Source: Escherichia phage E26. Taken from it: a stretch of DNA of 64,000 nt. The translations under genes and the position numbers were made by a program. Numbering within the stretch: position 1 is the first letter of the stretch; each line of letters opens with the position of its first letter. Location of the stretch: sequence record MN655998.1; one strand, 5' to 3'. The notes beneath the pieces were generated by a model. That model saw only the letters and a program-made list of their open reading frames with translations, was not told where the DNA came from and did not search any database. Of this stretch, positions 16,061-27,896 are shown piece after piece.

Positions 16061-16569
16061 TTGATTAAATCATCACATTGTTTGCGTAGTTTATAGCGAT
16101 ACTGTTTTGATTGTAGCAATTGAAGTTTTTCATAATCCCCTTCCTCATATGCAGCCGAAAGATCATCTTGATATGCTGCTTCCGTCCCGATTACACATAC
16201 TCCAAATTTTCTACGACGGTCGGCATCTTCCATTGCTTTGCGATTCATTTCTTCAATTGAATTTTCATGACCATAATAATATTCGTAAATGCGTTTCTTC
16301 TCTGCTTCTTTATCTGCCTTAATCTTTGCGATCTGTTCTGCTGATTCCGGTTGACGACCTAAACGCTGTAATGAGGCGTCTTTCTTTTCAAGGTAGTCAA
16401 TCACGCAATCTTCAACGCTATTAAATGGAAAACGTGACTCTTTCTGCCATCGTTCACATGACCGTACAAACTCGTGTGTATTCTTAGATGCAAGTGCCAG
16501 ATCATGCACAGCGCACCCATTAAGCATAGCCACTAAAGCCGCAAGACCAATCAGTTTAATCATTTTCAT
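16057..16569 (-). CDS. predicted lipoprotein
   Basis: 170 aa; signal peptide MKMIKLIGLAALVAMLNGC with lipobox-like LNGC; ATGA start-stop overlap with upstream Alt-like gene. Confidence 0.6.
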   Translation of the reverse strand: MKMIKLIGLAALVAMLNGCAVHDLALASKNTHEFVRSCERWQKESRFPFNSVEDCVIDYLEKKDASLQRLGRQPESAEQIAKIKADKEAEKKRIYEYYYGHENSIEEMNRKAMEDADRRRKFGVCVIGTEAAYQDDLSAAYEEGDYEKLQLLQSKQYRYKLRKQCDDLIK

Positions 16570-17390
16570 TTAGTCACCTCACCGAAAATTGTAAATTGTC
16601 TACGATTCTCATCACCGAAAGATTCTACTACGTCGTTTACCTTGACGCAAGTCCCGCGCGGTAAAATTACTTCACATTCGCAAGGATTCCATGCAATTGA
16701 CCCAACAACAAAACCTTTATGATCTTTTACGTCAATTACCCACGATACATTACAAGAATGTTGCATCTTTCCGGTCATGGATTCATATCGATTCTCACAA
16801 TAAAGGCTAGTGCTGTTTGATAGCCAGCCTCCAAAGATGATCGGTGTCATGCTGGTTGACACAAAGTTTTTAAAGGTAAATTCCTTATCTTCAATAATAC
16901 GCTCTATTGTCTGAATGTCAAGATGTTGACCGCGATAAAGAGTACCGTTTAACTTTTCGGTTTTATCCATGACGCAATCCATCAAATCAACAATCTCTGA
17001 TATCTCATCGGTCATGTCTTCTTCCCCTAAGAGAGCACCATTTACCCATTCGTATTGTTCAGACACATAATCACAGATTGCATTATATTCTGCTGGGGTT
17101 ATGTTGTTATGTTTGTAATGTTTGAATACATTATCTCCAAAGTCTTCGGAGTGTACTTCATACATCACATTAATGATTTTCTTGACAAATCCATAATCTT
17201 GTGTCTCACGCTCAAGGAAGCGGATAACCTTCACATAATCATCAAAGTTAATCTGATCGCTGATCATCTCAGTGATCATGTAACCATTAATCCCCTCAAT
17301 GTCATATGTTTCGATGTAATTATCCATACGTTCCATCATTGATTCGCGTGATTCTTCTGAAAGACGAAAATCCTGTAATTTCTTGAACAT
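16566..17390 (-). CDS. Alt-like ADP-ribosyltransferase paralog (catalytic domain only)
   Basis: 274 aa; R-S-E ART motifs LYRGQHLD, FVSTS, ECEVILPRG, parallel to those in the adjacent Alt. Confidence 0.7.
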   Translation of the reverse strand: MFKKLQDFRLSEESRESMMERMDNYIETYDIEGINGYMITEMISDQINFDDYVKVIRFLERETQDYGFVKKIINVMYEVHSEDFGDNVFKHYKHNNITPAEYNAICDYVSEQYEWVNGALLGEEDMTDEISEIVDLMDCVMDKTEKLNGTLYRGQHLDIQTIERIIEDKEFTFKNFVSTSMTPIIFGGWLSNSTSLYCENRYESMTGKMQHSCNVSWVIDVKDHKGFVVGSIAWNPCECEVILPRGTCVKVNDVVESFGDENRRQFTIFGEVTK

Positions 17391-17468: not shown

Positions 17469-19520
17469 TTACATTTTAAATTTATCTGGCATTGCGTCTA
17501 CAGATACCAGATCAGCGATAAGCTGACGTAGAGTTGCCTTATCTGCTTTCTTACGTTCGGTTTTAGCTTCGCTAATGAAGCTGGAGAAAGACAGGTCAGA
17601 AGCAGGTTTAACAACACCTTCACGGATGAATGCATCACCGTCCGCGATCATCTCGCCAGATTCTTGTAATGCTGCCAGTTCATTTTTGTTCATAATATGT
17701 GCCTCAATGTAATAAGTTTCTTGTGAATCCGTCGATGCCGTAGCACGAGTTACCGTATCAAAGGATAACACAACACCGCGAGGAAGTAAAATCTCGCATT
17801 CTTTGTAAGCAAATGCTTTGTTACCTACTGGCAAGACAGGGATGTTTTCCGCGCCAGCAATGGAGAAAGCAACATTAGCGCCACCTTCACCGCGAGAGCC
17901 AGCCATAGAATCAACACCAGCAACGGCACTAGCCACGTTTGCATTCCAGCCGCCAAAAATGTTAGGTGCAAGGGAAGTGCTCACATAGTTTTTAAAGTAA
18001 AACGCTTTTTGCTTACGTGCAGTTTCCCACATTTGCGACCGGAAGTCCATACCACGATACAGAATAGTACCCGGATCAAGTTTAACTCCATAGTTGGAGA
18101 AGGCATTATCCAGTGCATCGCACATCTTGACCAATTCTTCTGGATCTGCGATGCCTTCAAACTCTTCCAGCTTACGATCAGTTAGGAAGTTGTTCATATT
18201 GATGTATGCTGCATCGGCATATTCGCTCAATACAAAACCTTCCGCGCCAGGCAGATCAAGATCAATATCTGCCATCATTTCACCCATGTTGCTAGCAATT
18301 GCTTCAAACATACCGGAAGCAACATTACGTAGGGCATCGGTTTTAATCTGTGTGATGTGACTACGCAGCATTTCAGCTTTTACATCTGCTGGCATAGACT
18401 GGTCTACTCGATCCATTGCCAGGGCGGTGATCTTGTTTTCGAATACTTCCTCGCTCATGATTTCTTTTAAGCGTTTGATTGATGCTGCGATAACTTCCGC
18501 AGACAACGGATCATATTGATCCTGAACTTTTACCAGTTCGCTTACTGCGTATTTTGCATCGGCTTCGCTTTCAAAAATAGTACGCATGAAACCATAGCGA
18601 GTGATAATATCACTTGTCCAGTCATTCAGAGAACGGGCGGTTGAACGTTCTAAGGCTTGACGATCAATCAGAGTATTAAACTGTTTCTTAGGTTCGGCTT
18701 CGGTGATATCTTCTTCTGGTTTAAGATTAATTTTTTCTGGATGATTCACGTAGTCGCTGTTATATGTCGCTTGAGTTTTCAGCATTTCTTCTTTAGTCAA
18801 ACGAGATTTAGCCGCTACGCGTTGTTCTGCTTCCGCGTTTCGTTCTTCTTCTGACACAAGACTAGCCGCATATGCCTCATCTTTAGTCAGAGATTCACCA
18901 GTAGCCTTAGATACCCAGCGATCACCTAAATCACTTTCTACTTTAGTGAACAAGGATTCATCAAGTTTAATCCCTTTAATCTTATCAATCGCCATCCCGC
19001 GACGCTTGACAACAACTAAAGCGATCTTTTTGCTGGTCATTACTTCCTGCTGGAATACTTCAAACTTCGGTGTACGACGCACCAAACGCTCTATAACGCG
19101 CTTAACCAGTTCGGTCTTACCTTTCATGCGGGATACGTTAAAACGGAACATAACAGCGTCTAATTGCGCTTTACGGGCTGTTTCCATAACCACATCAAAA
19201 GCACTTGCCATAACTGCAATCGGGTTATCGCCTAGACCATTTTTAAGCTGTACAATACGACCGCTTTTGTTCATTTCGCACAGTACAACATGTGCGGTTT
19301 TGTCACCCATACGAATGATTTTAGGTGTTTTGTTGGTGAAGTTACAAAGACGGACAATCACATCTTTATCGCGTGTCTGTACTGCAAAAAGCTGTTTAGG
19401 ATTCTGCTTAGGCTTTAAGCACTGTACCGGAGCAATACTGCCAAAGTTTTCTTCCTCTTCCGTCAACAGCCATTTCTCGAAAGATTCAATCATTAGATCG
19501 TCGATTTCTAAGTTAAACAT
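17469..19520 (-). CDS. alt: Alt ADP-ribosyltransferase
   Basis: 683 aa; ART motifs LYRGMDF, YVSTSL, ECEILLPRG; size and position as T4 Alt. Confidence 0.85.
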   Translation of the reverse strand: MFNLEIDDLMIESFEKWLLTEEEENFGSIAPVQCLKPKQNPKQLFAVQTRDKDVIVRLCNFTNKTPKIIRMGDKTAHVVLCEMNKSGRIVQLKNGLGDNPIAVMASAFDVVMETARKAQLDAVMFRFNVSRMKGKTELVKRVIERLVRRTPKFEVFQQEVMTSKKIALVVVKRRGMAIDKIKGIKLDESLFTKVESDLGDRWVSKATGESLTKDEAYAASLVSEEERNAEAEQRVAAKSRLTKEEMLKTQATYNSDYVNHPEKINLKPEEDITEAEPKKQFNTLIDRQALERSTARSLNDWTSDIITRYGFMRTIFESEADAKYAVSELVKVQDQYDPLSAEVIAASIKRLKEIMSEEVFENKITALAMDRVDQSMPADVKAEMLRSHITQIKTDALRNVASGMFEAIASNMGEMMADIDLDLPGAEGFVLSEYADAAYINMNNFLTDRKLEEFEGIADPEELVKMCDALDNAFSNYGVKLDPGTILYRGMDFRSQMWETARKQKAFYFKNYVSTSLAPNIFGGWNANVASAVAGVDSMAGSRGEGGANVAFSIAGAENIPVLPVGNKAFAYKECEILLPRGVVLSFDTVTRATASTDSQETYYIEAHIMNKNELAALQESGEMIADGDAFIREGVVKPASDLSFSSFISEAKTERKKADKATLRQLIADLVSVDAMPDKFKM

Positions 19521-19560
19521 TTTATATCCTCTAGTTGATAACCTATAAACCTATATTTAT

Positions 19561-19582
19561 GAAAAGGGGGCTTAACGCCCCC
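19561..19582 (-). terminator. Rho-independent terminator (minus strand)
   Basis: GGGGGC-TTAAC-GCCCCC hairpin with U-run on minus strand. Confidence 0.55.
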
Positions 19583-19587
19583 ATTTA

Positions 19588-19800
19588 TTATAATGCACCA
19601 TCGAGCAATTGCTCTAATGTGTATCCTGAATAGTCTTTTTCAATCAGGATATATTTTCCTACTCGTTTAATACAACCGCGCATTTCAACGTATTCTGCGT
19701 AGTTGATGGTGCGAGTTGTTCCATCTTCTAGCAAAGCAGTACCGATTTCGTTAATGCGGTCATAAGTTACGTCGGTAATGATGATTTCGATGTTAGCCAT
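19588..19800 (-). CDS. small hypothetical protein
   Basis: 70 aa; preceded by promoter cassette and SD; N-terminus MANIE shared with ORF 21684..21935. Confidence 0.55.
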   Translation of the reverse strand: MANIEIIITDVTYDRINEIGTALLEDGTTRTINYAEYVEMRGCIKRVGKYILIEKDYSGYTLEQLLDGAL

Positions 19801-19836
19801 TTGATACTCCTTAGTAGTTCGTTTCGGTATGGGTGT

Positions 19837-19865
19837 ATTATGATATACACCCTCTGTTATGTCAA
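19837..19865 (-). promoter_or_regulatory. PeSL-like early promoter cassette 1
   Basis: Minus strand TTGACA-N17-CATAAT; palindrome GGGTGTAT..ATACACCC across the -10. Confidence 0.55.
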
Positions 19866-19871
19866 CAACTT

Positions 19872-20051
19872 TTAGAACATTTTTGAAATTAATTCTGCTT
19901 TGATTTCGCAGAGAACATCTAAAGATTTCTCGTCACCCGCTTTTGCTGCTTCTGATTGCATTTTTGAAATGGCTTCAACGTAAGTGCAATTATAAGCCGC
20001 TTGAACTTTAGCGATTGCGATGATTGCCGATTCGATGGTTAAGTGTTTCAT
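19872..20051 (-). CDS. small hypothetical protein (59 aa)
   Basis: Manual translation MKHLTIESAIIAIAKVQAAY...; SD GGAGAATCAA; not in ORF track. Confidence 0.4.
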   Translation of the reverse strand: MKHLTIESAIIAIAKVQAAYNCTYVEAISKMQSEAAKAGDEKSLDVLCEIKAELISKMF

Positions 20052-20083
20052 GTTTGATTCTCCTTTCGTTTCGGTATGTGTGC

Positions 20084-20112
20084 ATTATAGGGGATCACCG
20101 ATCCCCTGTCAA
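20084..20112 (-). promoter_or_regulatory. PeSL-like early promoter cassette 2
   Basis: TTGACA-GGGGATCGGTGATCCCC-TATAAT; perfect palindromic spacer with two GATC sites. Confidence 0.6.
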
Positions 20113-20676
20113 CAACTTTTTTGAATTATTTTTTAATTGCTCATCTTGTAATAGAGCAATAACATGCTGGCGATGTTCTTCCGATTGAGGCACACCGAAA
20201 AAGTTTGTTTTGTAGAAATATTCTAATCGATCTTCTCGTGTGCTCTCTTCCATCATGATCGCGGGTAGTCCGAGATTTCGGAAACGTCGCTTTTCTGCTG
20301 GCGTAAAATCACTGTAATACAACATAGAATCATCATTACCAGCAATGCTAAACTCATCTTTCATAAAGGAGAATATTGCGTTTAAACGCTGTTTACCGTC
20401 CACGATTTCGATCTCATAGCGAGAGCCATCATCAATCTTAGCCATTGCGATAGCACCAACCGGAAAATCATTAATCAGGTTTTCGATAAACATACGTTTG
20501 TTTTCGGTGTCCCATACCAAAGGACGCTGATAATCTGGGTTCATGTTGATATAGCCATCTTCTAACCACGCCTCATAAACAGAGATGACAAAGTTTTTAG
20601 TATTGGTATAGTAACGGCGTTTAGGCGTTAAACGGTTCATGTTATAGTCTCCTGAATGGATCATCACGTAAATCAA
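20095..20676 (-). CDS. DUF262 (ParB-like / GmrSD N-terminal domain) protein
   Basis: 193 aa; signature motifs PDYQRPLVW and VDGKQRLNAI. Confidence 0.7.
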   Translation of the reverse strand: MIYVMIHSGDYNMNRLTPKRRYYTNTKNFVISVYEAWLEDGYINMNPDYQRPLVWDTENKRMFIENLINDFPVGAIAMAKIDDGSRYEIEIVDGKQRLNAIFSFMKDEFSIAGNDDSMLYYSDFTPAEKRRFRNLGLPAIMMEESTREDRLEYFYKTNFFGVPQSEEHRQHVIALLQDEQLKNNSKKLLTGDR

Positions 20677-20971
20677 TATCTTTTAAGAACTCATCCCATG
20701 AATGGCGGATATTGTTCTTAATTCTCCAGATAAGCGCAGGGATTGAACGCTCTCCCATCTGGAAGTAAGGATCATATGATCCATATGCCCAATATGCTAC
20801 TACAATTCCACAATCAGCGCAATAATATTCTATTTCACTTGCTGGCGACCAAAGTCCATCAATATGATCGGTGATCCTGCTTTCGATGTTATGGCTATGG
20901 CAATCAGGGCAACGGATGCAATGACCTTGTTTATCGTAATTTGACGTTAGCGAATACTTAAACAATCTCAT
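20642..20971 (-). CDS. zinc-ribbon protein
   Basis: 109 aa; CIRCPDCHSH and CADCG Cys pairs; overlaps both neighbours. Confidence 0.5.
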   Translation of the reverse strand: MRLFKYSLTSNYDKQGHCIRCPDCHSHNIESRITDHIDGLWSPASEIEYYCADCGIVVAYWAYGSYDPYFQMGERSIPALIWRIKNNIRHSWDEFLKDIDLRDDPFRRL

Positions 20972-21687
20972 TATAGATCCTTATTTGCTTCAAATACTGC
21001 CTTTGCGAATCCTCGCGGGGTAAGTGACCTTATAGTCTTTGTTTTCGTTCCTTTCCCGCCTAGCTTAGAATGCTGTTTACTGTACCCTTTATTAATCTGC
21101 AACGGTTTCTTTTCTGGCATTATAAAGCCTTGTCCGGTCCATAAGCAAGTCCTTTTCGGGTACATATCACGGGCGGCAATATACTCAGGAAAAGTAGGAT
21201 GTTTATCATCTTCCGGCAAATAACCGCCATATTCCCACGGATGGAACATATAATCAGGCTTACGCCACATGCTAGAGATAACGCTTACAGGATTCTCTAT
21301 CATGTAGGGAACTCCTAGCCATTCACCCAAATAAGCGGTTATTTTAGCTGCCCGTACATCATGAACTTGAATCAATGGTCCTTGCTCTCGTTTCTTTCGT
21401 TCAAAGTGTGCAGCGCCACTAACAGCTAAATTGGTGCACGGTGGGAATGCAAATATAATATCCGGTTTCCCCCATTCAAGGTCCATTGCTCTTTCTAGCC
21501 AGTTCAAATCAATCCATGTGTTTACATATGTAATGTTTGGATGTTCAAATCGGGTATTATATTTTTTGTATGTACCGTGGTCGCCATCGTCAGCATTAAA
21601 GCAGATCACCTTATGACCTGCTTTAGCCCATTCTAACCCCATTATCCCCGATCCGTCAAAGTTGCAGAATATTAATTTTTGTTTCAC
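20971..21687 (-). CDS. minimal C5-cytosine methyltransferase-like protein
   Basis: 238 aa; motif I-like FDGSGIMGLE, motif IV-like FAFPPCTNLAVSGA, motif VI-like MIENPV, motif IX-like RSLTPRGFAKAV in correct order and spacing. Confidence 0.6.
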   Translation of the reverse strand: MKQKLIFCNFDGSGIMGLEWAKAGHKVICFNADDGDHGTYKKYNTRFEHPNITYVNTWIDLNWLERAMDLEWGKPDIIFAFPPCTNLAVSGAAHFERKKREQGPLIQVHDVRAAKITAYLGEWLGVPYMIENPVSVISSMWRKPDYMFHPWEYGGYLPEDDKHPTFPEYIAARDMYPKRTCLWTGQGFIMPEKKPLQINKGYSKQHSKLGGKGTKTKTIRSLTPRGFAKAVFEANKDL

Positions 21688-21935
21688 GCTGCCCCCATTG
21701 GTTTGATAGTAACAGAATCTAAAAGACCTTTGTTAGCCAGTTCGCGGCAAGTTTTCAGATCCGCAACTTCCCAGCCAGCCGCAATCAGGTTATCAATCAG
21801 GCTGTTAGCAATTTCTTCGCTCATGAAAGAGCACTGTTTGCCGATGGTGTAGCGTACACGCTGTAATTTCAGTTTACGGAAGCCTTTAACGTTCAGGTCT
21901 TTAGCGATTTTCTTTGCGGTTTCGATGTTAGCCAT
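21684..21935 (-). CDS. small hypothetical protein
   Basis: 83 aa; preceded by promoter cassette and SD. Confidence 0.55.
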   Translation of the reverse strand: MANIETAKKIAKDLNVKGFRKLKLQRVRYTIGKQCSFMSEEIANSLIDNLIAAGWEVADLKTCRELANKGLLDSVTIKPMGAA

Positions 21936-21975
21936 TGTTTGATTCTCCTAAGTGGTATCTCGTCTTGATGGTTGT

Positions 21976-22004
21976 ATTGTAGGGGAGTTATCCTCCCCTG
22001 TCAA
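21976..22004 (-). promoter_or_regulatory. PeSL-like early promoter cassette 3
   Basis: TTGACA-GGGGAGGATAACTCCCC-TACAAT; palindromic spacer. Confidence 0.55.
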
Positions 22005-22018
22005 CACTTTTTATAAAA

Positions 22019-22186
22019 TTATTTGTTAATTTCCGGTGCGTTGCTTGGATAGTAACCTTCTTTAACTCCGAGGTATTTCGCAACCATCCCTACAATCTTC
22101 TGTGCTACTACAATGTCAAATTTCAGATAATCTTCACCGTAGGTTTCAATGATATATGCTTCACATGCTGCTTTAGTCTCGAACAT
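22019..22186 (-). CDS. small hypothetical protein (55 aa), paralog of 25287..25454
   Basis: Manual translation MFETKAACEAYIIETYGEDYLKFDIVVAQKIVGMVAKYLGVKEGYYPSNAPEINK; not in ORF track. Confidence 0.5.
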   Translation of the reverse strand: MFETKAACEAYIIETYGEDYLKFDIVVAQKIVGMVAKYLGVKEGYYPSNAPEINK

Positions 22187-22219
22187 TTTGATTCTCCTAT
22201 TTCGTTTCGGTATGTGTGT

Positions 22220-22248
22220 ATTATAGGGGATCTCCCGATCCCCGTCAA
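22220..22248 (-). promoter_or_regulatory. PeSL-like early promoter cassette 4
   Basis: TTGACG-GGGATCGGGAGATCCCC-TATAAT; palindrome with GATC sites. Confidence 0.6.
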
Positions 22249-22263
22249 CAACTTTTTTTAAAA

Positions 22264-22545
22264 TTATTCGTGATTAGTTTCGATGTTGTGCATTTTGCAC
22301 CAGTTCAGCCAATCGCCCAGTTCTTGATAGTTGATGCTTTTATCTGCTGCCATCGTTTTTGTCTTGATACCCATATGTGCGTTATGAGTAAGCATTTTTA
22401 CAGTGAACTCGATTTTATCGCCTTTAGCTTTAACATCAACCAGTTTGGTCCACTGGCTACCAGCACCGCGAATGTTCATGCCAACGATGTTTCCGATGTA
22501 TGCTTCTTTGTTTTTCAGGATTTCGGTTGCTTTGATGAATTTCAT
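22264..22545 (-). CDS. small hypothetical protein
   Basis: 93 aa; promoter cassette and SD upstream. Confidence 0.55.
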   Translation of the reverse strand: MKFIKATEILKNKEAYIGNIVGMNIRGAGSQWTKLVDVKAKGDKIEFTVKMLTHNAHMGIKTKTMAADKSINYQELGDWLNWCKMHNIETNHE

Positions 22546-22578
22546 TTTTGATTCTCCAGTTCGTTTCGGTATGGGTGT

Positions 22579-22607
22579 ATTATGCTATGTTCTTACTTTG
22601 GTGTCAA
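22579..22607 (-). promoter_or_regulatory. PeSL-like early promoter cassette 5
   Basis: TTGACA-N17-CATAAT. Confidence 0.5.
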
Positions 22608-22615
22608 CAACTTTT

Positions 22616-22885
22616 TTAGATATTTTCAGAAATAAATTTTAAAACTTGACGTAAATGTTTCTCATCTTTGATAGTCGCCGGAAGTTCTTCTTTTACTTCC
22701 TGTGCAAGATAGATATTTCCGTTCCAAGTGAAAGATCCGTCTTCGTTTACGCGATAGCTGAACATCCACTCGCAATCATTTTCGATTTCATATACACACA
22801 GAAGAGTGTAATCTTCAAAGCTATTGAGTTCAAGGTCGAAGCCGTGACGTTTTGCAAAGTTGGTAGTGGTTTTAGTCAGTGCCAT
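22616..22885 (-). CDS. small hypothetical protein
   Basis: 89 aa; promoter cassette and SD upstream. Confidence 0.55.
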   Translation of the reverse strand: MALTKTTTNFAKRHGFDLELNSFEDYTLLCVYEIENDCEWMFSYRVNEDGSFTWNGNIYLAQEVKEELPATIKDEKHLRQVLKFISENI

Positions 22886-22925
22886 TGTTTGATTCTCCTA
22901 AGTGGTATCTCGTTTCGATGTGTGT

Positions 22926-22954
22926 ATTATGCTATAGGCGTGTTCTGGTGTCAA
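22926..22954 (-). promoter_or_regulatory. PeSL-like early promoter cassette 6
   Basis: TTGACA-N17-CATAAT. Confidence 0.5.
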
Positions 22955-22978
22955 TTCTTTTTTTAAAATTTTATGCAA

Positions 22979-23004
22979 TAAAAAAGCCGACGCTAAGGTC
23001 GGCT
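22979..23004 (-). terminator. Rho-independent terminator (minus strand)
   Basis: AGCCGAC-GCTAAG-GTCGGCT hairpin; U-run on minus strand. Confidence 0.55.
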
Positions 23005-23011
23005 AATAAAA

Positions 23012-23320
23012 TCATTTAGACAAATAATCATTCTGTGCAATCCGGTCAGCATGTTCCGGCGTTACGTCAATTGCAATCACTTTAACGCGTGCTTTCTTGC
23101 GACCTGGGTTTTCTCGTAGCCAGTGCGTGTGACCGTACAAATTTTTATACTTTGATGCTTCTTCGAAGGTACGGATCGGACCTGGGTAATCAGCGTAAAG
23201 GATCTCTAGATCTTCGGTGATGTAAAAATATACATCGTAATTGCTGTTCTCTAGCTTAAGCAGAGACTTTCGGAACATTGGGAGATTTTCGCGGGTAAAT
23301 TCAAAGATATTATCTTTCAT
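23012..23320 (-). CDS. HxHW-AVDV family protein, copy A
   Basis: 102 aa from internal Met MKDNIFEF; motifs VYFYITEDL, HTHW, IAIDV; track N-terminus reads through the terminator hairpin. Confidence 0.55.
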   Translation of the reverse strand: MKDNIFEFTRENLPMFRKSLLKLENSNYDVYFYITEDLEILYADYPGPIRTFEEASKYKNLYGHTHWLRENPGRKKARVKVIAIDVTPEHADRIAQNDYLSK

Positions 23321-23343
23321 AGTATTATCCTCAATAGTTGGAT

Positions 23344-23366
23344 GAAAAGGGGGGCTTAACGCCCCC
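23344..23366 (-). terminator. Rho-independent terminator (minus strand)
   Basis: GGGGGGC-TTAAC-GCCCCC hairpin. Confidence 0.5.
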
Positions 23367-23371
23367 ATATA

Positions 23372-23659
23372 TTAAAACAGTCCTTCCTGTACACCGTAAT
23401 AGAGTTCGTCGCTGATAATTTCATTAATGCGACGGTGTGCATATTCCTGATTTGCGAAGTTGTCAGCAAGTTCTACTTTAGTTTCTCCGTCATGAGTCCA
23501 TTTAGTGATAACTTTACCATCTGCAAATTTGAAGTTGAACTCTTTAGCTACCGCATCGCGTACCAGACGTGCAAACTTATTGTTGCGGATTGCATTGTCG
23601 GTTTCGTGTGCAGCGTGAGCGAATTTGTTAACTTTCAGAGTGATAGTAATGTATGCCAT
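23372..23659 (-). CDS. small hypothetical protein (AKEFN motif)
   Basis: 95 aa; shares AKEFN-containing segment with ORF 26672..26983. Confidence 0.55.
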   Translation of the reverse strand: MAYITITLKVNKFAHAAHETDNAIRNNKFARLVRDAVAKEFNFKFADGKVITKWTHDGETKVELADNFANQEYAHRRINEIISDELYYGVQEGLF

Positions 23660-23705
23660 AATTTGATTCTCCTAGTTAGAAAGTGTATCTCGTTTCGATG
23701 GGTGT

Positions 23706-23734
23706 ATTATGCTATACACCCGACCTTATGTCAA
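23706..23734 (-). promoter_or_regulatory. PeSL-like early promoter cassette 7
   Basis: TTGACA-N17-CATAAT; palindrome GGGTGTAT..ATACACCC across -10. Confidence 0.55.
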
Positions 23735-23740
23735 CACTTT

Positions 23741-24019
23741 TTATAAAATAATTTTTTGATATTTTTCTATGATGTTCGTGTAAGTCACATCAACCGCTAG
23801 CACCGTTGCTTCGAATCCACCGTTTAGCCAATGGCTATGGTCATGATCGTGAAAGAAACCAAGACCAGTACGAAGACCTTCTTTATATTCTGCGCGTACA
23901 TTTAGATCATCATCGATAAACAGATAAAACCATGAATTTTTACTAGGATTGATGATACAACCTTTCAGATTAGGGAGAATATCACGACTAAGAATAAACT
24001 TATCACCTACTTTGAACAT
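23741..24019 (-). CDS. HxHW-AVDV family protein, copy B
   Basis: 92 aa from internal Met MFKVGDKF (SD GAGGA); motifs WFYLFIDDDL, HDHDHSHW, LAVDV. Confidence 0.55.
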   Translation of the reverse strand: MFKVGDKFILSRDILPNLKGCIINPSKNSWFYLFIDDDLNVRAEYKEGLRTGLGFFHDHDHSHWLNGGFEATVLAVDVTYTNIIEKYQKIIL

Positions 24020-24033
24020 AATATTTTCCTCAC

Positions 24034-24342
24034 TTATAAAGTTTGACCGTTGTTTTTCGCGTAATGCTGAATGCGTGCTTGATCTGCTTCCGCTGGTGAT
24101 AGATTCCATGCAACCACTACAACTTCTGACGCATCGTCATCCGTTTTTGATACCCAATGATTATGATTCATACAATTGTTTGCTATCGCGTGAGCAAATG
24201 ATTTCATCACTGGAGATGTATAATCATAGTAACGGATTTTCAGATTTTCATCAACATACAAGTAGATCGTATAAGGTTTATATTCAGTAACCAGTAACAG
24301 ACAGTTACGCAATTCTGGGAAAATCTTTTTAGTTAATTTCAT
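24034..24342 (-). CDS. HxHW-AVDV family protein, copy C (divergent)
   Basis: 102 aa from internal Met MKLTKKIF (SD GAGGA); motifs YLYVDENL, NHNHW. Confidence 0.5.
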   Translation of the reverse strand: MKLTKKIFPELRNCLLLVTEYKPYTIYLYVDENLKIRYYDYTSPVMKSFAHAIANNCMNHNHWVSKTDDDASEVVVVAWNLSPAEADQARIQHYAKNNGQTL

Positions 24343-24343
24343 T

Positions 24344-24565
24344 TTATAATCCTCGGTCGCGGCTATAGTACACGGTACGCCATACAATTTCATGTTTCGT
24401 GTCGCTCCAGCACACGATCTCATTTACTCTTAAATCTTTGTTATCAACAAAAGATGAACATTGTGACGTTTCTTTCATCATTTTATCTGCTGTTTTCTCA
24501 TCAAATACAGCACAGATTTCTTTATACACTCGATAATCTTTAAACTTGCTCATAATTAACACCAA
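24344..24565 (-). CDS. small hypothetical protein (MSKFKDY family)
   Basis: 73 aa; tandem paralog of 24556..24765; start may be the internal MSKFKDY Met. Confidence 0.5.
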   Translation of the reverse strand: MVLIMSKFKDYRVYKEICAVFDEKTADKMMKETSQCSSFVDNKDLRVNEIVCWSDTKHEIVWRTVYYSRDRGL

Positions 24566-24765
24566 TCAAGAGTTTTTGAAAACACATCTATCCATTGTTG
24601 AGTATATGCGGTTTCTTTCCATGATACAATACCGGTAGAATAATGGTTTTTGTTTCCAGAAAAGGACGGGCATTTTGATGCATCTTCCATCATCTTTTCG
24701 GCGAACTCTGGTTCGTATACTCGCAAGATCTGTTGATATGCTTTGTAGTCTTTAAATTTGCTCAT
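24556..24765 (-). CDS. small hypothetical protein (MSKFKDY family)
   Basis: 69 aa; MSKFKDYKAY...MMEDASKCPSF parallel to neighbour. Confidence 0.5.
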   Translation of the reverse strand: MSKFKDYKAYQQILRVYEPEFAEKMMEDASKCPSFSGNKNHYSTGIVSWKETAYTQQWIDVFSKTLDWC

Positions 24766-25030
24766 AATCGTTAACTACCTTATCAGCTTCTTTTATTGTT
24801 TTTACATCAACTGCGATAACCCGTAAAGGTTCGTCGTGGTTCCACCAATGATCGTGAATATCAGCTTGTGATTTATCACCAAAGGAATCACGAATATCAT
24901 TTTTACATTTATAGCTAATGTGACCGTCATAGTCAACATAAAGGTAATTATCGAAAATCGGCGTTTTTAAGATCATACCGAAAAATCTTTCTTTGTGTGT
25001 CTTATCCAGCGTTGCAGTAATTCGCATCAT
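24752..25030 (-). CDS. HxHW-AVDV family protein, copy D
   Basis: 92 aa; motifs YLYVDYDG, HDHWW, IAVDV. Confidence 0.55.
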   Translation of the reverse strand: MMRITATLDKTHKERFFGMILKTPIFDNYLYVDYDGHISYKCKNDIRDSFGDKSQADIHDHWWNHDEPLRVIAVDVKTIKEADKVVNDYEQI

Positions 25031-25042
25031 AATATATTCCTC

Positions 25043-25222
25043 TTAGAAAGGGATGGTCATTTCTTGAGCTTGTACATTCTCGTTAGGATTAAACTTCATC
25101 CAACCGATATTGTCTACCAGCATATGTACATTTTTATCATACCCTACGTGAGTAGTCAACACTAAATGTGCTTTACCTTCAACGATGATTTCCATGTACT
25201 TCTGAACTTCGATAGCTTTCAT
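25043..25222 (-). CDS. small hypothetical protein (59 aa)
   Basis: Manual translation MKAIEVQKYMEIIVEGKAHLV...; SD GGAGAATCAA; not in ORF track. Confidence 0.4.
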   Translation of the reverse strand: MKAIEVQKYMEIIVEGKAHLVLTTHVGYDKNVHMLVDNIGWMKFNPNENVQAQEMTIPF

Positions 25223-25254
25223 TTTGATTCTCCGTTTGTTGTCTTGATGGGAGT

Positions 25255-25283
25255 ATCTTACTACTCCCTTTAATCATTGTCAA
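25255..25283 (-). promoter_or_regulatory. PeSL-like early promoter cassette 8
   Basis: TTGACA-N17-TAAGAT; palindrome GGGAGTA..TACTCCC across -10. Confidence 0.5.
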
Positions 25284-25286
25284 CTA

Positions 25287-25454
25287 TTATTTGTTAATTT
25301 CCGGTGCGTTGCTTGGATAGTAACCTTCTTTAACACCCAGATATTTTGCAACCATTCCGGTGATCTTCTGTGCTACTACGATATCGAATTTCAGGTAGTC
25401 TTCACCGTGGGTTGCTACAATGTATGCTTCGCATTCTGCTTTAGTCTGGAACAT
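25287..25454 (-). CDS. small hypothetical protein (55 aa), paralog of 22019..22186
   Basis: Manual translation MFQTKAECEAYIVATHGEDYLKFDIVVAQKITGMVAKYLGVKEGYYPSNAPEINK; not in ORF track. Confidence 0.5.
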   Translation of the reverse strand: MFQTKAECEAYIVATHGEDYLKFDIVVAQKITGMVAKYLGVKEGYYPSNAPEINK

Positions 25455-25488
25455 TTTTGATTCTCCTATATCTCGTTGGTATGTGTGT

Positions 25489-25518
25489 ATTATAGGGGAT
25501 CTCCCGATCCCCTGTCAA
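25489..25518 (-). promoter_or_regulatory. PeSL-like early promoter cassette 9
   Basis: TTGACA-GGGGATCGGGAGATCCCC-TATAAT (18-nt palindromic spacer with GATC sites). Confidence 0.6.
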
Positions 25519-25526
25519 CAACTTTT

Positions 25527-25835
25527 TTATTCTTCATCTTCATTTTTATCTTTATATGCGTACTTCATAAATTTGTCTGCTACTTTGTCCGCGTTTTCAG
25601 GTTCTACGTCTGACGCTAGGACAACAGCTAGTTCGGTTTTGTCGTTTCCATCATACCAATGATTATGAGTGTCGTTTTCTTTGATATAAAACGAATCATT
25701 TGGAGTTGTGCGACAATATACGTCTAAATTCCCATCGATATAAAAGATCCAATCCGAATACAAAATGATTGTTTTAGCCAGATTTTTATTGTCTCTTACA
25801 AAAGGTTCCGCGACAAATAGCTTAGTTTGTTCCAT
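25527..25835 (-). CDS. HxHW-AVDV family protein, copy E
   Basis: 102 aa from internal Met MEQTKLFV (SD GAGGAAA); motifs IFYIDGNL, THNHW, LAVVLASDV. Confidence 0.55.
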   Translation of the reverse strand: MEQTKLFVAEPFVRDNKNLAKTIILYSDWIFYIDGNLDVYCRTTPNDSFYIKENDTHNHWYDGNDKTELAVVLASDVEPENADKVADKFMKYAYKDKNEDEE

Positions 25836-25851
25836 AGTAATTTCCTCAAAA

Positions 25852-26043
25852 TTATACAGCTTCGTAAACTTCCCAATGTCCAACACCAGCACGCTTAACG
25901 AAAAGGTTTTCTTTGATGTTATTCATAAACGTCTGGATGGATTTAATGCGGTTGGAAGGTTTCCAGTCTTCGTTAGCATTGCGGCGATACATTATAACAT
26001 TACCAGATCGCTTATATTCAGCAACCATTTTAAGACCACACAT
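25852..26043 (-). CDS. small hypothetical protein
   Basis: 63 aa; SD GAGGA upstream. Confidence 0.45.
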   Translation of the reverse strand: MCGLKMVAEYKRSGNVIMYRRNANEDWKPSNRIKSIQTFMNNIKENLFVKRAGVGHWEVYEAV

Positions 26044-26099
26044 AATAATATCCTCAATTTGTGGGAGAGTATTACCCTCCCAATTATTGTTATACTACA

Positions 26100-26402
26100 T
26101 TACGCAAAATGGCGTGTCAATGCTTCTTTTGCTGTTCCGCTAAGATTCTCGATCTCTCCTGGCATAACATCAACCGCCAGAACTTCTACAACATCCTCTG
26201 ATCCTAACCAGTGAGTATGACCTTTGTAGAACTTGATATCCCATTTAACGCTATCGCTAGCCCACCACACATCACCGTCGATAAAGTTGATGTAAAGCAC
26301 ACTACGACACATTGAATTAATTACTTTCAATACTGCGCCTTTCATCTCTTCCACGGTATGGTCTTCCATTTTGAAGACCTCACCTACCTGAACTTTTGCC
26401 AT
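26100..26402 (-). CDS. HxHW-AVDV family protein, copy F
   Basis: 100 aa; motifs LYINFIDGDV, HTHW, LAVDV; SD AGAGGTG. Confidence 0.55.
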   Translation of the reverse strand: MAKVQVGEVFKMEDHTVEEMKGAVLKVINSMCRSVLYINFIDGDVWWASDSVKWDIKFYKGHTHWLGSEDVVEVLAVDVMPGEIENLSGTAKEALTRHFA

Positions 26403-26419
26403 TTAGTCACCTCTCTTTA

Positions 26420-26599
26420 TTACATAACAATCACGCCAGCCGTTGAAAGTTGATGTTTCAACTGAGCATTTTCTGCTACCGTCAAATCAATGATTTCTTG
26501 TGACGCTGCAATCATATAGCCATTGGTGATATTGTTTTGCATCAGTTCAATGGTTTCTTCGTTGTAGCGGATTTTAGCGATGATTTCGTTGAAGTTCAT
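26420..26599 (-). CDS. small hypothetical protein (59 aa)
   Basis: Manual translation MNFNEIIAKIRYNEETIELMQNN...; not in ORF track. Confidence 0.4.
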   Translation of the reverse strand: MNFNEIIAKIRYNEETIELMQNNITNGYMIAASQEIIDLTVAENAQLKHQLSTAGVIVM

Positions 26600-26633
26600 A
26601 ATTGATTCTCCTAGTTCGTTTCGGTATGTGTGT

Positions 26634-26663
26634 ATTATAGGGGAGTTTAGCCTCCCCTGTCAA
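26634..26663 (-). promoter_or_regulatory. PeSL-like early promoter cassette 10
   Basis: TTGACA-GGGGAGGCTAAACTCCCC-TATAAT; palindromic spacer. Confidence 0.55.
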
Positions 26664-26671
26664 CAACTTTT

Positions 26672-26983
26672 TTAAAGTTTTTCCATGATAACGGTCATAA
26701 TTACATCTTCTGCGCGAGCGGTCAGATTATCAGCGTCAGCATGTGGGCGGTTGGTTGTTACAGAGATAACACCGTTGCGCACTGGTTTGATATTGATATC
26801 AAGATGATCCGCGAAACGTTCGCCAGTTACAGAATGAATTTTGGTGTTAAATTCTTTTGCCAGTGCCTTGCGAACTTCACGAATCAGGATAGCGTTTTTC
26901 AGTTGGTTCTCCGCGCTCATGGTCTTCTGGGTGTTCATGGTTCCGTCGAAGTCAATCATTGGCAGCGTTACGATGTATTTCAT
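26672..26983 (-). CDS. small hypothetical protein (AKEFN motif)
   Basis: 103 aa; paralogous segment with 23372..23659. Confidence 0.55.
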   Translation of the reverse strand: MKYIVTLPMIDFDGTMNTQKTMSAENQLKNAILIREVRKALAKEFNTKIHSVTGERFADHLDINIKPVRNGVISVTTNRPHADADNLTARAEDVIMTVIMEKL

Positions 26984-27028
26984 TTTTGATTCTCCGTTTA
27001 AGAAAGTGTGTTTCGTTTTGATGTGTGT

Positions 27029-27057
27029 AGTATAGGGGATCGGTGATCCCCTGTCAA
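27029..27057 (-). promoter_or_regulatory. PeSL-like early promoter cassette 11
   Basis: TTGACA-GGGGATCACCGATCCCC-TATACT. Confidence 0.55.
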
Positions 27058-27070
27058 CAACTTTTTTGAA

Positions 27071-27415
27071 TTATTTTTTCATGAGCTTAATTGCTTCTTC
27101 CATAGCCAACACATTTCGATAGTTAGGGTATCGTGTTAGATCGTCATACATTCGCTTAAGGGTGGAAACTTCCTCAAACTCTGGGTTTTCTAGATACAGT
27201 TGAACAAATTGTTTCTCTATCATCTCTGCTTTTAGCTTGTCTGCTTGTTCCTGTTCATATGATTTAGTTGGACCCAACACCAACAAAATGATAAAGGTGA
27301 TCAACGGGCTAATGATCAACGATAGGATAACATAACCGATAACGCTACGGTTTAAACGGCTTGCATACATGCCTACCAGGAAAACAAAAAGGATATAGAT
27401 AAACAGAAAGAACAT
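27071..27415 (-). CDS. membrane protein
   Basis: 114 aa; two N-terminal transmembrane helices. Confidence 0.5.
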   Translation of the reverse strand: MFFLFIYILFVFLVGMYASRLNRSVIGYVILSLIISPLITFIILLVLGPTKSYEQEQADKLKAEMIEKQFVQLYLENPEFEEVSTLKRMYDDLTRYPNYRNVLAMEEAIKLMKK

Positions 27416-27422
27416 ATAATGG

Positions 27423-27896
27423 TTACTCCTTATTTTCGCGCTCGTACTTTTCGAAATAAAATTCTACTGGCTGGTCATTAATTGACAGCAAGCCAAAGCG
27501 TTTAGCCGCTCGCAATCCCATATTGCGCTGAATGTACTTCTGGAAGTTCTCGCGTATACACTTACGCCAGTATTCTAAGCCCATACAGCTTTTATAAAGA
27601 TTGCATTGCACACACGCCGGATTCATGTTATCAAGTATATCATGTTCCGGTTTATGCATTCCTACAACCTTATACTTCCACGATCCATCATCATTACGGG
27701 CAATTCGTCCATTTTCATCATAGACTACCTTTGAGCGTCGCAATACTGGTTTGATGTGGTCTGCGTGCCAGCGATCCCCTAGTTCCTCGCCACAATAGGC
27801 ACAACGTCCACCATATTTCATTTTCAGGATCTGGCGTTGCTCTTTCTTTGACAATTTTTTAGGTTTAGGGGCTTTTGCCCCTTCATTATCACACAT
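27423..27896 (-). CDS. HNH endonuclease (freestanding, homing-endonuclease-like)
   Basis: 157 aa; CAYCGEEL...WHADHIKP HNH core and second Cys pair CVQCN; start overlaps end of ligase gene. Confidence 0.75.
   Translation of the reverse strand: MCDNEGAKAPKPKKLSKKEQRQILKMKYGGRCAYCGEELGDRWHADHIKPVLRRSKVVYDENGRIARNDDGSWKYKVVGMHKPEHDILDNMNPACVQCNLYKSCMGLEYWRKCIRENFQKYIQRNMGLRAAKRFGLLSINDQPVEFYFEKYERENKE

Follow-up and report, generated by a model that had tools for sequence, protein, structure and literature searches.

The closest described counterparts of the locus analysed here are the PeSL plus ORFan cassettes of the phages RB49 and phi1 (Arbiol, Comeau, Kutateladze, Adamia and Krisch 2010, Genome Biol Evol 2:140, PMC2839356), a line of work extended in Comeau et al. 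2014 (PMC4122927). A PeSL (promoter-early stem-loop) combines a sigma70 early promoter with a GC stem-loop and drives gene shuffling. Its anatomy comprises an AT-rich tract with the upstream stop codon, the sigma70 boxes, a G(n)-loop-C(n) hairpin, a ribosome-binding site and the ATG; PeSL x PeSL deletions and chimeric PeSLs, with crossovers between the -10 box and the ATG, have been described. Once cloned, RB49 PeSL206/205 acted as a strong promoter (~13,000 Miller units), and the stem-loop of RB49 PeSL211/210, the only one whose terminator activity was measured and one that differs in sequence (GGGGATCACGTATCCCC) from those treated below, terminates about as well as rrnB T1 (PMC2839356). PeSL mini-circles were proposed as vectors of horizontal transfer, excision being the one step of the mini-circle cycle demonstrated so far, and a sequenced mini-circle carries ORFs 191-194 (PMC2839356).

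Lambdoid-phage morons (Hendrix et al. 2000), a comparison already made in PMC2839356, resemble the present cassettes in being single accessory genes with their own promoter and terminator placed between other genes, but they lack conserved flanking linkers and are thought to move via illegitimate recombination, whereas here the regulatory cassette supplies the homology. Integron gene cassettes, an analogy drawn by Arbiol et al. (PMC2839356), likewise are promoter-linked rows of small ORFs that can be exchanged and that pass through circular intermediates. They use an integrase and attC/attI sites, whereas here every ORF has its own promoter and exchange apparently proceeds by general homologous recombination. 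Dispersed paralogs whose concerted evolution is driven by gene conversion, such as bacterial tuf and rrn, share with our case the combination of old duplicates, short identical tracts, shared polymorphisms and loss of the interval when the repeats recombine; the present case is much smaller (a 240-bp module), its conversion is patchy, and it is found in a lytic phage that recombines very actively.

The window, a stretch of 64,000 nucleotides of Escherichia phage E26 (MN655998.1), belongs to a Krischvirus (RB49-like, T4-type coliphage) genome, and Krischvirus genomes share 94-97% identity with it across the region. The part considered here lies in hyperplastic region 3 (HPR3) of the phage, which corresponds to RB49 ORF185-212 and is also where the RB49/phi1 PeSLs are found. 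It holds two copies of a 55-residue gene, A and B, whose RB49 orthologs are ORF191 (RB49p191; also phi1 ORF191) and ORF205 (RB49p205), respectively. The loci are thus those already described, with phi1 PeSL193/191 the ortholog of cassette A and PeSL206/205 that of cassette B, and since the mini-circle carries ORFs 191-194, copy A lies inside a demonstrated circle. The genome comparison was based on GenBank phage records, because IMG/VR yielded only two related loci. The features are as follows.

21976 to 22004, minus strand: PeSL191/190, the next PeSL 3' of copy A and the 3' limit of module A; stem-loop GGGGAG-GATAA-CTCCCC
22018 to 22258, minus strand: module A, PeSL cassette plus 55-aa ORF, ortholog of RB49 ORF191 and phi1 ORF191; limits from the global alignment with module B
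22019 to 22186, minus strand: coding sequence of copy A, 55 aa, beginning MFETKAACEAYIIETYG; PHROG 8009 match (E 1.7e-37), no Pfam match
22194 to 22198, minus strand: Shine-Dalgarno AGGAG of copy A, 7 nt 5' of the ATG, read from the sequence
22220 to 22248, minus strand: sigma70-type early promoter A; -35 TTGACG, 17-nt spacer, -10 TATAAT, 11/12 consensus; PeSL193/191 in phi1 nomenclature
22226 to 22243, minus strand: stem-loop in the promoter A spacer, GGGGATC-GGGA-GATCCCC, 7-bp stem, 4-nt loop; RNA fold -14.9 kcal/mol, z -2.3
22259 to 25285, minus strand: interval between the direct repeats, ten small early ORFs homologous to RB49 ORF193-204; absent from phage Cognac (B x A recombination)
25255 to 25283, minus strand: PeSL205/204, the next PeSL 3' of copy B and the 3' limit of module B; its stem-loop overlaps the -10
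25286 to 25528, minus strand: module B, PeSL cassette plus 55-aa ORF, ortholog of RB49 ORF205; limits from the global alignment with module A
25287 to 25454, minus strand: coding sequence of copy B, 55 aa, beginning MFQTKAECEAYIVATHG; PHROG 8009 match (E 1.1e-38)
25463 to 25467, minus strand: Shine-Dalgarno AGGAG of copy B, read from the sequence
25489 to 25518, minus strand: sigma70-type early promoter B; -35 TTGACA, 18-nt spacer, -10 TATAAT, 12/12 consensus; ortholog of RB49 PeSL206/205
25495 to 25512, minus strand: stem-loop in the promoter B spacer, the same sequence as in A, in this phage only; RNA fold -16.0 kcal/mol, z -3.5

The original prediction of a duplicated 55-aa gene, about 85-90% identical at both nucleotide and protein level, is borne out by alignment, and both ORFs lie at the positions given, on the minus strand. 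The two proteins share 49 of 55 residues (89%; BLASTP E 3e-37), and the coding sequences differ at 23 of 168 nucleotides (86.3% identity). All differences fall within nt 7-120, the last 48 nt of the gene being identical in the window phage, as is the promoter core. Over the modules 22018-22258 and 25286-25528, 216 of 245 columns of a global alignment are identical (88.2%), and just outside both modules identity drops to 29-35%. Because the coding region itself is duplicated, identity is not confined to the promoter cassette; the repeat unit runs from the A-tract 5' of the -35 box through one base beyond the stop codon, so that its boundaries coincide with one promoter-plus-gene cassette, as had been proposed.

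The upstream cassettes singled out earlier correspond exactly to two near-consensus sigma70 promoters of the minus strand, each from its -35 to its -10 box, with hexamers about 17 nt apart, and the A and B upstream regions can be aligned position by position with the RB49/phi1 elements 5' of ORF191 and ORF205. In each, an AT-rich tract 5' of the -35 box holds or abuts the upstream stop codon (A ...CACGAATAATTTTAAAAAAAGTTGTTGAC, B ...GAAGAATAAAAAAGTTGTTGAC). A stable polyG...polyC stem-loop follows, of the subclass placed between -35 and -10, and on the 3' side AGGAG stands 7-8 nt before the ATG of an ORFan in the hyperplastic region. Insertion, deletion or replacement of flanking ORFs at these elements is seen in Brandy, JK32, PTE-Eco09, RB49/MIZ6 and JSE; the PeSL 5' of A, for example, is accompanied by different genes in RB49/MIZ6 and JSE and by none in the window and phi1, while in PTE-Eco09 the ORF210 stop codon is joined directly to the B PeSL. 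The hairpin is stable, but it is followed by UAUAAU and not by a U-run, and a terminator scan does not flag it. An Rfam scan of 19500-27500 at gathering thresholds gave no match.

The 18-mer GGGGATCTCCCGATCCCC is present in both cassettes, as had been noted, although the term palindrome holds only imperfectly for a 7-bp inverted repeat with a 4-nt loop. It occurs only at 22226-22243 and 25495-25512, also when three mismatches are allowed, and 100 shuffles contained no match. Most of the 16 relatives compared have the loop GGGA at A and GGT or ACC at B; the identity of the two stem-loops is peculiar to the window phage. Moreover, cassette A is 90% identical to cassette B, 90% to the PeSL at 20084-20112 and 86% to that at 26634-26663, both of which drive genes unrelated to the 55-aa pair. 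Promoter similarity is therefore not specific to the pair, the PeSL sequence being conserved family-wide, and the promoter need not have been duplicated together with the gene, because the A PeSL is no closer to the B PeSL than to unrelated ones.

The prediction had also called the duplication recent, and here the comparison of genomes contradicts it. Between A and B, codons 1-40 show a dS of 1.38, near saturation, with a dN/dS of 0.056. Across 17 genomes the copies diverge by 18.9% in nt 1-99 compared with 1.2-2.5% within A or within B; eight sites have no allele common to the two lineages, and codons 11-14 and 31-32 persist as lineage-specific islands. Two copies are present in about 51 of 58 Krischvirus records and at least one copy in every record, and both copies are syntenic in about 50 independently assembled genomes. 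These comparisons show an old, genus-wide paralog pair, duplicated before the sampled genus diverged, with both copies under strong purifying selection; one copy is always kept and the second is dispensable. Since the flanks have turned over and no junction scar of the original duplication is left, its direction and mechanism are unrecoverable.

How, then, can an old pair retain identical stretches? Mosaic alleles suggest an answer. Copy A of PTE-Eco09 has the B-type -10 flank, 5'UTR and nt 1-24, copy A of Skers carries a B-type PeSL, and copy B of both Brandy and PTE-Eco09 is A-type in nt 51-75. In the window phage itself, the loop and -10 flank of copy B are A-type, and nt 141 and 153 of copy A are B-type. 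The 3' third of the gene contains polymorphisms common to the A and B lineages, synonymous ones included; the last 15 codons show zero synonymous differences between A and B (P about 0.004), and the C-terminal 15 residues are invariant in 29/29 sequences. The copies, and PeSLs generally, exchange short patches via recombination or gene conversion, which accounts for the identity of the promoter core and of the final 48 nt of the gene in the window phage. The identical parts thus have two explanations, family-wide PeSL conservation and patchy conversion tracts.

Exchange on a larger scale is visible in relatives. Cognac (a single assembly) has one B/A hybrid, in which B-type upstream sequence and 5'UTR are fused to an A-type coding sequence, and it is without ORF193 and the rest of the interval between the copies. 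Modules A and B accordingly behave as direct repeats, recombination between which deletes the 3.3-kb interval. Brandy and JK32 are without copy A and retain a chimeric PeSL, the 5'UTR half of PeSL191/190 being fused to the A promoter. This suggests that copy A is lost when the PeSLs on either side of it recombine, leaving one chimeric PeSL. The chimeric junction is compatible with either direction, ancestral or derived, and the A-less genomes could represent the empty ancestral site instead of a deletion. PeSL x PeSL deletions and chimeric PeSLs of the same kind have been described for RB49 and phi1.

We therefore consider it probable, at about 85%, that the pair consists of the ancient paralogs ORF191 and ORF205, each an autonomous early PeSL unit, which exchange sequence in patches and whose modules are recombining direct repeats. 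Each gene would be transcribed early and autonomously from its own cassette, in the order A-rich upstream tract, sigma70 -35/-10 boxes with the GC-rich spacer stem-loop, short 5'UTR and AGGAG, and the stem-loop would presumably attenuate transcription reading through from the cassette before it. The original duplication may have taken the PeSL route, by excision of a PeSL plus ORF mini-circle or by unequal PeSL exchange, followed by insertion at another PeSL. A more specific version is doubtful, though conceivable: a PeSL plus ORF circle went back into the genome it came from, at a second PeSL, after which selection would hold two functionally distinct alleles apart at codons 11-14 and 31-32 and conversion would homogenise the remainder. 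The GGT/ACC loop flips would then hint at hairpin or cruciform events or at a dedicated protein targeting PeSL palindromes, as Arbiol et al. speculated (PMC2839356).

A recent duplication or transposition of the gene-plus-promoter module in this particular phage would agree with the 88% identity of the modules and with their identical promoter core and 3' end. It is nevertheless very improbable given the dS in codons 1-40, the synteny in about 50 genomes and the lineage-specific differences fixed genus-wide; genus-wide orthology refutes it. Transposition in particular finds no transposase, terminal inverted repeat or target-site duplication in the flanks, homologous recombination of one PeSL cassette with another being the route already known (PMC2839356). 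A transposable element or IS was likewise rejected, as the unit holds just the promoter and the 55-aa ORF and no repeat is common to the flanks; so was an integron cassette, with no integrase or attI/attC site among the region's ORFs and annotations. Least credible of all is an assembly artefact, that is, a falsely duplicated or mis-joined repeat. Apart from the general risk that repeats pose to assemblers, nothing speaks for it, whereas the copies differ at 23 coding sites, their flanks are different, and dozens of assemblies made independently, among them RB49, phi1 and JSE, contain both. Assembly collapse is excluded by the same synteny.

If the copies never recombined, purifying selection on the function of promoter and protein could by itself explain the family-wide conservation of PeSL promoters and the invariant C-terminal residues. 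We find this reading hardly tenable, however, because linked lineage-diagnostic sites, synonymous ones included, switch type together (copy A of PTE-Eco09; nt 51-75 of Brandy B; loop and -10 flank of window B), synonymous polymorphisms are common to A and B, and the Cognac hybrid proves physical exchange. It is also unlikely that, in place of a duplication within the lineage, homologous genes were acquired twice, independently and from different donor phages, with each insertion at a PeSL. Homologs at 72-74% amino-acid identity exist in unrelated siphoviruses (Swiduovirus swi2 and the Salmonella phages SeSz-2, D10 and Pu29), mini-circles have been proposed as transfer vectors, and the high dS is compatible with separate histories. 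The swi2 homolog has an ordinary promoter with no GC hairpin; gene and cassette are therefore not inseparable. Against this reading, A and B share 89% of their residues, a similarity that conversion between them could inflate, while neither exceeds 74% to any outside homolog, and an exhaustive profile search of 1.84 billion representative proteins found six clusters only, none grouping with one copy alone.

The duplication is thus real but largely explained by the described PeSL system, and it is not a new kind of element. The PeSL model predicts both the copying of cassettes to other PeSLs and instability of the interval between repeated cassettes, and the pair displays both outcomes, as genus-wide paralogs and as natural deletion and hybrid derivatives. 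PMC2839356 and PMC4122927 do not mention ORF191/ORF205 paralogy, cassette duplication or gene conversion. New here are the paralog pair itself, the exchange of patches from copy to copy and from one PeSL core to another, and, in Cognac, a natural deletion mediated by the coding repeat and not by the PeSL alone. Its significance lies mainly in being a clean worked example of these predictions; it also displays gene conversion, in patches, in a lytic phage, a subject that the original papers leave undiscussed. For annotation, identical promoter hairpins in RB49-like genomes should be read as PeSLs and not as evidence of recent transposition.

The 55-aa protein belongs to a tiny, unannotated family. 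A Pfam search gave no match, the sole match in PHROGs was phrog_8009, of the function-unknown class, and a word-indexed search of 5.8 billion proteins returned 5 clusters. No PDB structure matched below E = 4 in a Foldseek search; a helical hairpin of 55 residues is uninformative for fold searches. AlphaFold2, with an alignment of seven sequences, predicts such a small two-helix hairpin at a pLDDT of 73.6. Most likely, the protein is non-structural and serves as an early accessory factor directed at a host target.

Direct reading of positions 21800-25700 of the window and alignment of the two loci confirmed that the predicted duplication of a 55-aa gene is real. The copies and the repeat unit that contains them are as follows:

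22019..22186, minus strand: copy A, 55-codon ORF
25287..25454, minus strand: copy B, 55-codon ORF
22018-22258 and 25286-25528, minus strand: repeat unit (modules A and B, each gene with its promoter cassette), from a global alignment

The proteins share 49 of 55 residues (BLASTP E 3e-37), and the 23 of 168 nucleotides that differ between the coding sequences all lie within nt 7 to nt 120. The repeat unit runs from an A-tract 5' of the -35 element to one base past the stop codon; in the global alignment it is 88.2% identical over 245 columns, and just beyond it the identity of the flanks drops to 29-35%.

The region is 94-97% identical to the genomes of Krischvirus, RB49-like T4-type coliphages, and the RB49 counterparts of copies A and B are RB49p191 (ORF191) and RB49p205 (ORF205), respectively. 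Both are located in a block of small ORFs with the alt genes on one side and DNA ligase on the other, called hyperplastic region 3 by Arbiol et al. 2010 (PMC2839356). In that work the promoter-early stem-loop (PeSL), present in about 52 examples per genome, was defined as an AT-rich tract that includes the stop codon of the upstream gene, followed by a promoter matching the sigma70 consensus, a stem-loop of the form G(n)-loop-C(n), and an ORFan's ribosome-binding site and ATG. The stem-loop can take five positions, the -35/-10 spacer being among the commonest (PMC2839356). The elements at both loci are already known as such PeSL cassettes at annotated genes.

In gene orientation, each cassette has an A-tract, then TTGAC(G/A), the stem-loop and TATAAT; the two are near-consensus sigma70 promoters with a hairpin within the spacer. 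The 18-mer GGGGATCTCCCGATCCCC has exactly two sites in the 64-kb window (22226 and 25495), with no further one at up to 3 mismatches and zero matches in shuffled sequences. The palindrome said to be shared is thus the same at both loci, but it is a 7-bp inverted repeat with a 4-nt loop and not a perfect palindrome. The A cassette is 90% identical to the B cassette, and also 90% to PeSL 20084-20112 and 86% to PeSL 26634-26663, which drive unrelated genes; the likeness of the A and B promoters is a trait of the entire PeSL family. No U-run follows the hairpin of either cassette, and a terminator scan did not flag it as an intrinsic terminator. The cloned RB49 PeSL206/205, ortholog of the copy B cassette, gave about 13,000 Miller units, and the stem-loop of PeSL211/210 terminated about as well as rrnB T1 (PMC2839356). 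A putative attenuator role of the A/B stem-loop rests on the assay of a related, non-identical RB49 stem-loop.

The duplication had been thought recent. For codons 1-40 of the window copies, however, dS is 1.38, dN 0.078 and dN/dS 0.056 (Nei-Gojobori), and both copies are under purifying selection. Sequences of A and B were also taken from another 16 genomes (RB49, phi1, JSE, pEJ01, LF73P4, FL20, FL37, MIZ4, MIZ6, Skers, PTE-Eco09, Brandy, JK32, Cognac and two IMG/VR contigs), and together with the window they form two separate lineages:

nt 1-99: A-B divergence 18.9%; within A or within B 1.2-2.5%
nt 100-168: A-B divergence 6.7%; within A or within B 3-4%

At eight sites (nt 33, 36, 39, 41 and 93-96) no allele is common to A and B, and the replacements E3Q, A7E, I13V, E14A, T15N and V32T are typical of the lineages. 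According to tblastn, nearly all of about 58 Krischvirus records hold two copies and every record at least one; therefore, the duplication is older than the sampled genus. What stands of the predicted gene-plus-promoter module is a cassette-sized gene duplication that is neither recent nor a transposition.

Could A and B instead have been acquired independently? Homologs with 72-74% amino acid identity (69% at the nucleotide level) are found in the unrelated 45-47 kb siphoviruses swi2, SeSz-2, D10, Pu29 and Bas81, and others with 42% in Sasha-like phages, but A and B are nearer each other than any outside homolog, which favors duplication. The siphovirus homologs indicate horizontal transfer between phage families. 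The phage swi2 is a Swiduovirus (homolog at L014 3003-3158), SeSz-2, D10 and Pu29 are Salmonella phages, and Bas81 is an Escherichia phage; the promoter of the swi2 homolog is ordinary and lacks a GC hairpin of the PeSL type.

In the relatives, lineage-diagnostic sites of A and B change type in linked runs:

PTE-Eco09 copy A: B-type -10 flank, 5'UTR and nt 1-24
Skers copy A: B-type PeSL
Brandy and PTE-Eco09 copy B: A-type nt 51-75
LF73P4 copy B: A-type nt 69-75
MIZ6 PeSL191/190, the next PeSL downstream of copy A: A's stem-loop acquired

In the 3' third of the gene, synonymous polymorphisms are common to both lineages. At nt 141 and 153 the alleles of window copy A are B-type, so that the last 48 nt are the same in A and B (P ~0.004 given the 5' synonymous rate). 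In window copy B, both the loop (GGGA) and the -10 flank (TATAATAC) are A-type. Among 17 B cassette loops, including the Cognac hybrid, nine are GGT and seven ACC, and GGGA is seen in the window alone; the identical A/B palindrome is therefore specific to phage E26. The identical parts of A and B have two sources, the family-wide likeness of PeSL promoters and patchy exchange between the copies.

At the B stem-loop (25495-25512 and its orthologs among the relatives' loci L001-L017), the relatives split about evenly between GGT and ACC loops, two sequences that are exact reverse complements of each other, and which of the two is present does not depend on the -10 flank variant. The GGT and ACC cores are exactly those of the window PeSLs 27029-27057 and 20084-20112. 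This suggests either loop inversion via the palindromic stem or a swap with other PeSL cores.

Recombination between PeSLs yields mini-circles, which have been sequenced, and one of them carries ORFs 191-194 and hence copy A (PMC2839356). Cognac has a single copy, in which the upstream ORF206 homolog, PeSL and 5'UTR are B-type, and the coding sequence and downstream ORF190 homolog are A-type. The interval between the copies, ORF193 homolog included, is missing, and the crossover maps to a stretch of about 20 nt at the ribosome-binding site and start codon. Copy A is absent from Brandy and JK32, which have a chimeric PeSL composed of A's -35, stem-loop and -10 with the 5'UTR of PeSL191/190, its junction being the mini-circle crossover zone of PMC2839356. 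A bigger deletion with the same starting point is found in MIZ4 (L015 9746-10051), where copy A is missing together with the genes downstream of it as far as the ORF185 homolog, DNA methyltransferase included; the junction gene begins with the same ATGGCTAACATCG as ORF190, which suggests recombination between alike 5' gene ends. In PTE-Eco09, the ORF210 stop codon is fused straight to B's PeSL. In FL20, codon 45 of copy A (L010 6073-6240) has mutated from TAC to the premature stop TAA and copy B is intact, so the second copy is dispensable. No junction scar of the original duplication survives, and the chimeric PeSL of Brandy and JK32 fits an event of either polarity.

From the gene contents compared, the PeSL upstream of copy A (window 22220-22258; L001 2848-3466; L012 5632-6071) is also an insertion hotspot. 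At this position RB49 and MIZ6 have the 477-nt ORF192, and JSE has an unrelated gene of 312 nt, EpJSE_00199. In RB49, ORF192 lies between ORF193 and ORF191, and it is missing from phi1 (PMC2839356); it is missing from the window too, where the ORF193 homolog (22264..22545) adjoins A's PeSL. No added gene is present at this PeSL in the window and phi1.

The two PeSL papers (PMC2839356; Comeau et al. 2014, PMC4122927) make no mention of paralogs or conversion. Three findings go beyond them, all refinements inside a known mechanism: the paralogy of ORF191 and ORF205, the mosaics produced by conversion, and the type of deletion seen in Cognac.

The 55-aa protein has no match in Pfam, its sole PHROG match is phrog_8009 (function unknown), and its family comprises 5-6 clusters in large protein collections. 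Its AlphaFold2 model (pLDDT 73.6) is a hairpin of two helices, residues 5-16 and 18-39, for which Foldseek returned no match in the PDB. From the strong early promoter, the hyperplastic region and the retention of at least one copy, we infer a putative early accessory protein acting on a host component.

A family of six paralogs, 92-102 aa long, takes up a large share of the sequence that separates copies A and B or lies directly upstream of them (23012-23320, 23741-24019, 24034-24342, 24752-25030, 25527-25835 and 26100-26402, all minus strand). Its members share an invariant H-x-H-W ... V-x-A motif and 23-31% mutual identity, with no significant Pfam match; within this hyperplastic region the family represents a far older expansion. 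The array of early genes on the minus strand is punctuated by classical rho-independent terminators that recur in two pairs, one at 19566-19582 and 23350-23366 (GGGGGCGTTAAGCCCCC plus T-run) and the other at 22985-23004 and ~44600 (AGCCGACC...GGTCGGCT plus T-run). The adjoining minus-strand ORFs 16566-17390 and 17469-19520 are paralogs with 37% identity and match genes annotated in relatives as Alt-like RNA polymerase ADP-ribosyltransferases. Finally, a 44-nt direct repeat occurs four times at 50783-51306 (61-70% identical, irregular spacing of 108-228 nt) and is probably a repeated protein motif within a gene.
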